Shown piece after piece: positions 5,282-63,990 of a DNA stretch of 64,000 nt (positions within the stretch are counted from its first letter, which is position 1; every line of letters starts with the position of its first letter). The notes under the pieces are model-generated. The model had not been told where the DNA came from. It was given only the letters and a program-made list of their open reading frames with translations, and searched no databases. This DNA is from Escherichia coli. GTDB taxonomy: Bacteria; Pseudomonadota; Gammaproteobacteria; Enterobacterales; Enterobacteriaceae. Location of the stretch: NCBI RefSeq assembly GCF_017348835.2, contig NZ_CP071375.1, one strand, 5' to 3'. The position numbers were made by a program, and so were the translations under genes.

Positions 5282-5312
5282 AAAAAAGCCTGCCAGATGG
5301 CAGGCTTTTTAA
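5282..5312 (-). terminator. Hairpin terminator downstream of glyS
   Basis: AAGCCTGCC-AGAT-GGCAGGCTT palindrome flanked by A/T runs. Confidence 0.7.
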
Positions 5313-24491: not shown

Positions 24492-24734
24492 GATCACCCC
24501 TTTGCACTAAAACAGCAGAGTGCCAGAGAGCGCGTCCCTACTGCTTTGATCCAACGAAGGAAATGTTAAAGTTTTGGCACTTGTCCAAAGCGTTATGTGA
24601 TCGCGCCCAGGTCATCCCTGACAGTAAATCCCAGTTCATTAGAAATAGCCTGCGCGGTTTCACGCAGAGGTTTCAGGAGATTTTTCTCTCCCACCTGTTT
24701 CAGACGTGATGTCGAAAGCGAAATCGACACGGCA

Positions 24735-25550
24735 CTACGAATTGATATGTTCCTTGCTGTAACGCCGCTTCCACGCTGCTGGCGTTAAACCGGTGTGTTT
24801 GCGAAAAATCTGCCGGAAATAGCCAACGTCATTAAACCCGCACAACGCCGCCACTTCCGTGAGCGATCGCGCTTCGCTAATTAACAGCTTTTCGGCTTCG
24901 CGCACCCGCTGGCGATGGATTGCTTCTGTTAACGTCAGATGAAACACCCGCCGGTAGACGCGCCCAAGATAATCGGCATTGCAGTACAGCTCGCGGGCCA
25001 GAAGCGCCGTAGAAAGCGGGCGATGATATTGCGTGCGGATCAGTTTCTGCGCTTTCCAGGCAAGGGTGGTGCCTGCGCCATCGGCCTGTTCATCAAGACG
25101 CGCGTCACGGGTGAGCTGCTGCAAAATGAGCAGCACAATAAACTCCAGCGCCGGAGTGCGTTGATGCTTTTCCTGTTCGCTTAAGAACTGGCGAAACAGG
25201 GCCACCAGCGCCTGCGGATCGACAACCTTCGTTTGTTGCGGCACGCTAAGATGAGTAAGCCAGCGAGGGTCGTTGTCCGGCGCTTTAACCTCAAAATGCA
25301 GCCAGTAAAATTTGAGATCGGCGGGAAAATCCTCCACCCCAACATGTTGTCGGTTCGGCCAGAGTAATAAACTCTCTCCCGCATCGACCAGAAATATCCG
25401 TTCTTCTTCCTGAATCGTTAATCGACCTTTTTCGACAAAGATAATTTCCCATGACTCCAGCCGCCTTGCAGGATGCCTCCCTACGCCACGGGAAATAAAT
25501 AATCCACCATTTTGCACTTTAATCGGTAACGTCATGGATAATTCGAGCAT
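24735..25550 (-). CDS. AraC-family transcriptional regulator (cupin N-domain + HTH)
   Basis: 271-aa ORF with C-terminal AraC HTH (…EVAALCGFNDVGYFRQIFRKHTGLTPAAWKRR); divergent from the transporter gene. Confidence 0.8.
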   Translation of the reverse strand: MLELSMTLPIKVQNGGLFISRGVGRHPARRLESWEIIFVEKGRLTIQEEERIFLVDAGESLLLWPNRQHVGVEDFPADLKFYWLHFEVKAPDNDPRWLTHLSVPQQTKVVDPQALVALFRQFLSEQEKHQRTPALEFIVLLILQQLTRDARLDEQADGAGTTLAWKAQKLIRTQYHRPLSTALLARELYCNADYLGRVYRRVFHLTLTEAIHRQRVREAEKLLISEARSLTEVAALCGFNDVGYFRQIFRKHTGLTPAAWKRRYSKEHINS

Positions 25551-25775
25551 TGATATGTAATTTCCCGCTTACTCATTAATGATTAAACACATTACCTTTT
25601 GATTATTAATCAAAAACATTAATTTCACCTGATCCATTTCACACTTTTAAATTCAGGTCGGAATCGTCACCTTTTTTTACTCTTTTCTCGCCTTGTTGAT
25701 ATTCCCGTTCACGGCAGAATTAATCAGGTCATTTCAATAAAACTAAAAATTGCTCCCTATTCACGAGGAATATCT

Positions 25776-27176
25776 ATGACCTCTACACCGATTACTACCG
25801 CTGATATCGCTAAAGGTAAAATTGACGATGCGTTATCTGTACGGGAAAAAATAGGCTACGGCCTGGGTGACGCAGGCGGCACCGTAATAACTTGCCTGAT
25901 CATGAATTTTCTCACCTTTTTCTACACCGACGTTTTTGGATTAACTCCGGCGCTGGTTGGCACGCTGTTTATTGCACTGCGCGTGTTTGATGCCATCTCC
26001 GACCCGGTGATGGGCGTCATTGCCGACCGGACGCAAAGTCGCTGGGGGCGCTTTCGTCCGTGGCAGCTATGGATTGCCATTCCCATCGGCATTATCGGCA
26101 TCCTGACGTTCACCGTGCCAGATGCCAGCATGGGAGTAAAAATCGCCTGGGCGTTCGGTACTTACCTGCTCCTTTCAGTCGGTTATACCGCCATCAACGT
26201 ACCGTACTGTGCGCTGATCAACACCATGACCACCCGCCACAATGAAGTGATCTCCTGCCAGTCCTGGCGATTCGTTCTCTGTGGCGTAGCGGGATTTCTG
26301 GTTTCGGTAGGCTTACCGTGGATGGTAGATCTCTTCGGTCAGGGTAATGCCGCGCGCGGCTATCAATTGGGCGTCGGCGTGCTGTGCGCCATTGCCGTGG
26401 TGATGTTCCTGTGCTGTTTTTTCTGGGTTCGTGAACGGGTGCCACTCTCCACAATGGGGAAATTTACCCTGCGCGAACATCTTGCCGGGCTGCGGAACAA
26501 CGACCAACTGCTGCTGATGCTGGTCATGTCTTTCCTGCTGATTAACGTCTTTAACATTCGCGGCGGTGGGTATATGTACTTCATTACCTACGTCTTACAA
26601 GGCAGTACGGGCTACACGTCGCTGTTCTTCACCATGGTCACCTTCGCCTCCATTATCGGCTCGGTGATTGTCAGCCCGTTAACGCGGCGTTTCGATACCG
26701 TCAAAATTTACTACTACACCAACCTGCTCCTCGCTGCGCTGGCGGTGTTGATGTGGTTCCTGCCCTCCGGCCCGGCTTATCAAACGCTGTGGCTGGCGGT
26801 GATCCTCGGTAATGGCGTAATTCTTGGCTTCACATTGCCACTGCACTTCTCATTGATGGCCTTTGCCGATGACTACGGCGAGTGGAAAACCCGCGTACGT
26901 TCTTCCGGCATGAACTTCGCCTTCAATCTGTTTTTCATCAAGCTGGCCTGGGCCTCCAGCGCCGGGATCATCAGCCTGCTGTTTATTTTTGTCGCCTACC
27001 AGCCTGGCGTGGAAAACCAGACCGCCAGTTCGCTTGGCGGGATCGCGGCGATGGAAACATTACTGCCTGCGCTATTCCACCTGCTGCTGGCAGGGGCGAT
27101 CCGCTTTTGCAAACTCAATAATCCTATGATGTCACGCATAGCTACCGACCTGCGTCAGCGTCATGTACAGCCTTAA
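25776..27176 (+). CDS. GPH-family glycoside-pentoside-hexuronide:cation symporter (MelB/YicJ/XylP-like)
   Basis: 466-aa 12-TM-like ORF with GPH signature region (…[25 protein letters not shown]…). Confidence 0.8.
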
Positions 27177-63823: not shown

Positions 63824-63990
63824 TCGTTTGCGCCCCCTCCCCCTAACCCTCTCCCTCAGGGAGAGGGGACCGTTCGGCGCTGAATGTACTCCCTCACTCT
63901 GAAACGACACCGCACTCTTTTTTTCTCCCTCGCCCCTCCGGGGTGAGGGGAAAAGGCCGCACTGCTCACCAATTTTCTGCTATCCTGCCC
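63824..63990. repeat. Palindromic intergenic repeat units (CCCTCTCC…GGAGAGGGG type)
   Basis: CCCTCTCCCTCAGGGAGAGGGG and CCCCTCCGGGGTGAGGGG stem-loops after lldD. Confidence 0.6.

Follow-up and report, generated by a model that had tools for sequence, protein, structure and literature searches.

An asymmetric core conserved within a perfect palindrome may be the -10 region of an AraC-type regulator gene divergent from a GPH-type transporter/GH127 operon in Escherichia coli

The spacer between the divergently transcribed AraC-type regulator and GPH-type transporter genes of this Escherichia coli locus contains a perfect palindrome, and comparison of orthologous loci suggests that selection acts on the asymmetric core yTGATTATTmA and not on the palindrome, whose symmetry appears to be incidental. 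The conserved core fits the -10 hexamer of the regulator gene better than it fits a symmetric operator. We consider it somewhat better than an even chance (a probability of roughly 0.55) that the core supplies the -10 region for a class II, CRP-type promoter of the regulator gene, set within an ara/mel-like divergent region. We infer the promoter assignment, the start sites, the identity of the CRP site and the binding of the regulator from conservation and geometry.

The locus lies in the window, by which we mean the whole 64-kb stretch of DNA that was analysed, and comprises three genes:

24735-25550, minus strand: AraC-family transcriptional regulator of 271 aa; domains AraC_binding (cupin) and HTH_18
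25776-27176, plus strand: MFS_2 (GPH-type) sugar transporter, 466 aa
27187-29157, plus strand: glycoside hydrolase family 127 (GH127) protein, beta-L-arabinofuranosidase family

The transporter and GH127 genes form an operon divergent from the regulator gene. The genes of the cluster have a GC content of 53-55%, which is normal for E. coli and argues against H-NS silencing of foreign DNA. The three-gene module is present in ∼2,310-2,320 of 5,426 complete E. coli genomes (∼43%) and is absent from K-12; in other strains this accessory module is flanked by sgbE/araD and yiaT. The window strain has lost the yiaJ-to-sgbE region, yiaJ-yiaK...sgbE/araD of other E. coli (locus L001 compared with L002), and a yiaJ remnant, a C-terminal fragment annotated as a pseudogene (24593-24733), adjoins the regulator gene. 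In E. coli ETEC4071 (L088) an IS1 insertion ends the spacer after 127 bp (at about window position 25677 onward); this strain lacks the transporter, GH127 and all that follows as far as selB, and its regulator gene stands as an orphan. A literature search on the regulator/transporter/GH127 module found no paper. The module probably imports and cleaves plant-derived beta-L-arabinofuranosides and, given the GH127 gene, the ligand of the regulator is presumably a beta-L-arabinofuranoside and not arabinose.

The original prediction was of a 15-bp perfect palindrome at 25599-25613 in an AT-rich divergent AraC/transporter region, and both the sequence and the setting are confirmed. The spacer (25551-25775) is 225 bp long and has 32% GC versus 51% for the whole window, with the regulator on the minus and the transporter on the plus strand. 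Within it, TTGATTATTAATCAA at 25599-25613 is a perfect 7-1-7 inverted repeat, the odd length of which leaves the central T25606 unpaired, and the symmetry is wider still, reaching a perfect 9-1-9 over 19 bp (TTTTGATTA-T-TAATCAAAA):

25597-25615, no strand: 9-1-9 palindrome, with the 7-1-7 core inside it at 25599-25613

To estimate chance occurrence, the 225-bp spacer was shuffled 20,000 times with its dinucleotide composition preserved. Inverted repeats with arms of 7 or more and a gap of 0-1 turned up in 4.9% of the shuffled sequences, and those with arms of 9 or more in 0.35% (P = 0.0035). The palindrome is therefore unusual for the 225-bp spacer alone and, by our estimate, at best borderline after correction for the several dozen intergenic regions in 64 kb. 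In all, 32 palindromes in the window have arms of 7 or more, TTGATTATTAATCAA among them. Longer, G+C-rich palindromes are found elsewhere in the window at 5283-5310, 63847-63867 and 50971-50990; among these, AAAAAGCCTGCCAGATGGCAGGCTTTTT resembles a bidirectional terminator and two CCCTCTCC...GGAGAGGG hairpins resemble repeat elements. The 19-mer is unchanged in seven E. coli genomes and in E. whittamii, a degree of invariance that is uninformative given the ∼1-3% divergence within Escherichia. A 20-nt direct repeat with 80% identity and 27-bp spacing (25575-25594 and 25602-25621) overlaps the right arm of the palindrome; as an element in its own right it was discarded, its upstream copy lying in sequence that is unconserved outside Escherichia. 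A second copy, ATTAATCA at 25719-25726, was likewise discarded as a partner site, the TCA part being conserved in only ∼50%.

More distant comparisons are informative. A genome scan yielded 80 loci from different species, nearly all of which keep the divergent regulator/transporter/GH127 order; regulator orthologues across the Enterobacterales share 58-94% identity and the spacer measures ∼215-280 bp in all loci but one (383 bp). A MAFFT alignment of 78 orthologous spacers gave a footprint of five conserved parts, the remaining columns being near random (0.0-0.5 bits):

25631-25647: GATC-N4-TCACA-N-TTT, 97-100% per column
25655-25698: mostly invariant block, AGGTCGGAAT..TCAyCTTTTTwTAC..CCTTGTTG
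25714-25720: GCAGAAT, followed by GT at 25728-25729
Shine-Dalgarno sequence: GAGGA
Palindrome region

A further conserved patch, TCCCGCT (AGCGGGA on the regulator strand), is found at 25563-25569 within the predicted 5' UTR of the regulator, with its GGGA ∼12 nt away from the ATG, a long distance for a Shine-Dalgarno sequence, and ATAT at 25553-25556, near the regulator start codon, is also conserved.

In the palindrome region the conserved columns do not follow the symmetry. An alignment-free check for TGATTAT[TC] located this motif in 64 of the 78 loci, across many genera, and these 64 core-bearing loci were used for the column counts:

25599-25609, no strand: conserved asymmetric core yTGATTATTmA, spanning the left arm and the central base and running 3 nt into the right arm
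25599: T in 53 loci, C in 10
25600-25606: TGATTAT, invariant
25607: T in 63 of 64 loci
25608: A in 52, C in 12
25609: A in 60 of 64 loci
25610, right arm: T in 32, C in 28
25611, right arm, partner of the invariant G25601: G in 26, A in 17, C in 16, T in 5
25613, right arm: A in 37, T in 23

The base that would match the palindrome is thus found at 25610, 25611 and 25613 in 50%, 25% and 58% of the 64 loci, respectively, and within Enterobacter alone 25611 takes all four bases. The columns flanking the core carry ∼0.1-0.5 bits. Pairing across the seven pairs of the 15-bp palindrome approximates the product of the column frequencies, the largest gap being at pair 7 (0.55 versus 0.49). The exact 15-mer is one of 29 variants and occurs in 10 of the 64 loci (Escherichia, C. 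amalonaticus, several Enterobacter, Yokenella and Kosakonia arachidis), where ∼2.6 would be expected from the column frequencies; we attribute this excess to shared ancestry within Escherichia/Citrobacter and within Enterobacter. Since the right arm varies freely, the symmetry appears not to be under selection. An operator palindrome was expected to be conserved in orthologous loci, and this expectation fails; what survives of the predicted operator is that its location in the divergent region overlaps a strongly conserved cis-element.

Exact core sequences are missing from 14 of the 78 loci, in 12 of which the regulator-proximal half of the spacer is unrelated. Such replacement is seen in Buttiauxella, Cedecea, Atlantibacter and some others, and the replacing half-spacer bears a conserved GTGTAG(A/T)(G/T)A (loci L047, L062, L064, L068, L069, L071, L072, L073 and L080); in L076, L077 and L079 the same half is also replaced, but differently. 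All of these half-spacer-replaced loci retain the CRP-like site and the transporter-proximal blocks, and the replacement constitutes a natural promoter swap. Two Trabulsiella loci have the core TGAATATC, which reads GATATT on the regulator strand in the same register, and one Mixta locus has TGATTATC, which reads GATAAT, again in register; both keep the A at -11 and the T at -7.

The position and composition of the core point to a promoter element. All aligned hexamers on both strands were scanned for those with A and T as second and sixth bases and four or more of six matches to TATAAT. Two independent positions were near-universal, the core AATAAT and the transporter-side CAGAAT/CAAAAT, and 100% of the 64 core loci was reached only by the minus-strand core hexamer and the plus-strand GATTAT that overlaps it. 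The best profile-to-profile match of the core within the spacer is the other predicted -10, on the opposite strand. A third position, the plus-strand TATACT at 25676-25681 inside the invariant block, reached 80-83%; it was dismissed as a promoter element, as E. coli reads TTTACT there (no A at -11) and the CRP-like site would be at ∼-52.5. The resulting predictions for the regulator side are:

25602-25607, minus strand: predicted sigma-70 -10 hexamer AATAAT (5/6) of the regulator promoter, AATAAT in 63 of 64 loci and GATAAT in one
25601-25606, plus strand: overlapping -10-like GATTAT, in 64 of 64 loci, sharing A25602 and T25606 with the minus-strand hexamer
25593-25595, minus strand: predicted regulator transcription start, placed from the -10 position, giving a 5' UTR of ∼43-45 nt

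In the proposed arrangement the regulator-strand AATAAT (25607 to 25602) would serve as the sigma-70 -10 of the AraC-family regulator gene. The core lies 49-51 nt upstream of the regulator ATG in the 64 loci, all of which have T at 25593 (A on the minus strand). The distance from the core to the GATC of the CRP-like site is 31 nt in 61 loci and 30 nt in three. No conserved -35 was found for the regulator promoter in the 78-locus alignment, columns 25622-25630 being variable, and a promoter scan that needed both hexamers returned nothing; TTGATT was considered as a -35 hexamer on either strand and dropped, no -10 being present at 16-18 bp. A regulator promoter of this kind, with no -35, would depend on the CRP-like site at 25628-25643 in a class II arrangement, as at melR, where transcription depends on a CRP site overlapping the -35 (PMC2377442).

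The putative activator site has the following position:

25625-25646, no strand: CRP-like 22-bp site with the core CCTGA-N6-TCACA at 25628-25643, centre 25635.5

The core of this site matches TGTGA-N6-TCACA at 8 of 10 positions. Its right half is perfect, and its left half is weak, CCTGA in E. coli and often CCCGA elsewhere. GATC and TCACA are invariant in the 78 loci save for one locus at 25633; CRP recognition would not call for so strictly conserved a GATC (a Dam site, 25631-25634), in place of which E. coli HCM-25C-3 carries GTTC. The window contains 33 matches to the CRP consensus with two mismatches, where 26 are expected, so such matches are not rare and the predicted identity of 25628-25643 as a CRP site rests on its conservation and position only. 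Its centre is 28.5 bp upstream of the core hexamer, 1 bp shorter than in the canonical -41.5 geometry. Relative to the predicted regulator start it lies at -40.5, with the start 7 nt downstream of the hexamer, or at -41.5 or -42.5 should transcription begin at 25594 or 25593; relative to the predicted transporter start it lies, in phase, at -91.5. One CRP-like site would thereby serve both divergent promoters, at ∼-40.5 for the regulator and ∼-91.5 for the transporter. Elsewhere in the window, the region upstream of mtlA (48592-48768) has four CRP sites that match TGTGA-N6-TCACA with 0-1 mismatch, a cluster which we take to resemble the known multi-CRP mannitol promoter and which doubled as an informal positive control for what strong CRP sites look like.

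On the transporter side, two conserved features define a second predicted promoter:

25655-25698, plus strand: near-invariant block AGGTCGGAATCGTCAyCTTTTTwTACTyTTy...CCTTGTTG, ending in the predicted -35 TTGTTG (25693-25698)
25715-25720, plus strand: predicted -10 CAGAAT of the transporter/GH127 operon, CAGAAT or CAAAAT in 96-98% of loci

Most columns of the block are 90-100% conserved in the 78 loci, with 25685-25690 less so. Position 25677 is T in E. coli and its closest Citrobacter and Salmonella relatives and commonly A elsewhere (TTTTTTTAC versus TTTTTATAC). CAGAAT lies 16 bp downstream of the conserved TTGTTG, with variable sequence between, and the two are predicted to be the -35/-10 pair of the transporter operon, with a start near 25727. 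By analogy with araBAD, the invariant block at 25655-25692 probably binds an AraC-type activator, which would then be placed between the CRP-like site and the transporter -35. No repeated regulator consensus could be derived from the conserved blocks. A weak direct repeat with a 21-bp offset is present in 25655-25698 and is not convincing. T-rich tracts dominate the self-similarity of the conserved blocks.

This layout recalls two well-studied divergent systems. In the ara system the activator sites are located at or just upstream of the -35 (-35 to -75), opposite a divergent regulator promoter, and at araBAD the CRP site lies ∼92-93 bp upstream of the operon start. The regulator described here shares with AraC the combination of a cupin-type AraC_binding domain and an HTH domain; in contrast to araC-araBAD, there is no sign of a distal O2-like looping site. 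The melR-melAB locus (AraC-family MelR, GPH transporter MelB and glycosidase MelA) has the same arrangement of a regulator divergent from an operon of a glycosidase and a GPH/MFS_2 transporter. Further points of likeness to melR are the CRP-like centre at the predicted ∼-40.5 and, by analogy with MelR site R, a possible regulator site over the regulator's own promoter. However, the predicted starts are ∼132 bp apart here versus 237 bp at mel, no repeated 18-bp consensus was found, and the genes are not orthologous (GH127 here versus MelA).

A number of identities for the palindrome itself were set aside. Among the motifs of global regulators, the FNR box comes closest. The E. coli palindrome holds both pentamers, TTGAT and ATCAA, of the FNR motif quoted as TTGAT-N4-ATCAA (PMC5352689), but the spacing is N5 instead of N4, the ATCAA half is unconserved in orthologues and the FNR consensus is found in 0 of 64 loci. 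The IHF site WATCAANNNNTTR is likewise found in 0 of 64 loci on either strand around the core, and the palindrome is absent from the TGTGA-N6-TCACA matches with at most two mismatches. An AraC-type DNA-binding domain covers ∼17-18 bp, and the two arms, with centres 8 bp apart, leave no room for two such domains of an AraC-type dimer. The sites of MelR are 18 bp long (PMC2377442). An RNA hairpin was also discounted: the stem has one G-C pair and is otherwise A-T, the DNA fold is -4.6 to -4.8 kcal/mol and the stem is unconserved. No terminator-like site was found at the palindrome, and its region has no Rfam match at E <= 1.

The conserved positions go beyond the hexamer and include TTGA (25599-25602), T25593 (64/64), A25612 and an A/T-rich run, mostly A, at 25614-25616; a -10 element alone therefore does not explain the conservation of the core. 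It is possible, if doubtful, that the additional positions form an asymmetric operator on the regulator's own promoter, occupied by one AraC-family DNA-binding domain over ∼17-25 bp around 25592-25616 and mediating autorepression, much as MelR does at site R or AraC at araO1. Such an operator is a serious rival, though one compatible with the -10 assignment, and the symmetry of the palindrome would be irrelevant to it. It would account for a footprint that is wider than a hexamer and whose patches (T25593, TTGA, A25612 and 25614-25616) recur ∼10-11 bp apart, and it has a precedent in MelR, which autoregulates through a site over the start/-10 region (PMC2377442). The core also bears a weak TGAnnATT likeness (6/8) to the inverted invariant block AATCGTCA (25662-25669); by a rough estimate, however, likeness to the transporter-promoter blocks is at background level for the ∼400 offsets scanned. 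The same operator is made less credible by the failure to derive a repeated regulator consensus and by the core-less loci, which keep the transporter-proximal blocks, so that the site is dispensable for the main function of the regulator. A tentative combined proposal is that the core (8 bp invariant, 11 near-invariant) and its helically phased flanks are the operator of a protein sitting on the regulator's -10. Candidates would be the AraC-type regulator itself, with autorepression like that of MelR site R, or another factor; the site would perhaps have been elaborated to a true symmetric operator in Escherichia, Enterobacter, Yokenella and some others, and the shared -10 might fire both ways.

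Firing in both directions is unlikely as an explanation of the core in its own right. In bidirectional promoters with a shared, pseudo-symmetric -10 (Warman et al.; PMC12825309), -10-like hexamers overlap on the two strands, and here A25602...T25606 is common to AATAAT on the minus and GATTAT on the plus strand, with predicted starts at ∼25595 and ∼25613, both hexamers being present in 64 of 64 loci. The 18 bp between the starts is the geometry of the most common class of bidirectional promoters (PMC12825309). Yet the plus-strand hexamer is conserved automatically with the minus-strand one and so provides no independent evidence, no -35, activator site or conserved element was found for the plus-strand start, and the palindrome axis (25606) does not coincide with that of the shared -10 (25604). 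A plausible activator site and a suitably spaced downstream gene are found on the regulator side only, and a plus-strand transcript would cross the CRP-like and regulator sites on its way to the transporter. A symmetric operator, TTGATTA-N-TAATCAA, bound by a dimeric factor such as a global regulator or another repressor, is very improbable. The perfection of the palindrome over 19 bp in Escherichia and the improbability of 9-bp arms in the spacer (P = 0.0035) speak for it, as do the perfect or extended forms in C. amalonaticus, several Enterobacter, Yokenella and Kosakonia arachidis, one of which is a 10-1-10 palindrome with different flanks, and the different palindrome, TTATTGA-ATA-TCAATAA, at the same place in Trabulsiella (L067). 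These are outweighed by an unconserved right arm, in which the partner of G25601 is C in only 16 of 64 loci, by pairing across the seven pairs that is close to the expectation for independence, and by the wrong FNR spacing, the FNR and IHF consensus in 0 of 64 loci and the lack of a CRP half-site in the palindrome.

Our results suggest that the spacer is most likely an ordinary control region with ara/mel-like architecture. They also carry a caution: a -10 element is nearly self-complementary, so palindromes form easily around it, and a perfect 19-bp palindrome in an AT-rich promoter can arise from this near-symmetry and need not be an operator. The analysis provides a first cis-regulatory map of an uncharacterised AraC-type regulator/GPH-type transporter/GH127 module that is widely conserved, in ∼43% of complete E. 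coli genomes and ∼80 Enterobacterales species. On this map both divergent promoters would be subject to catabolite (CRP) control.
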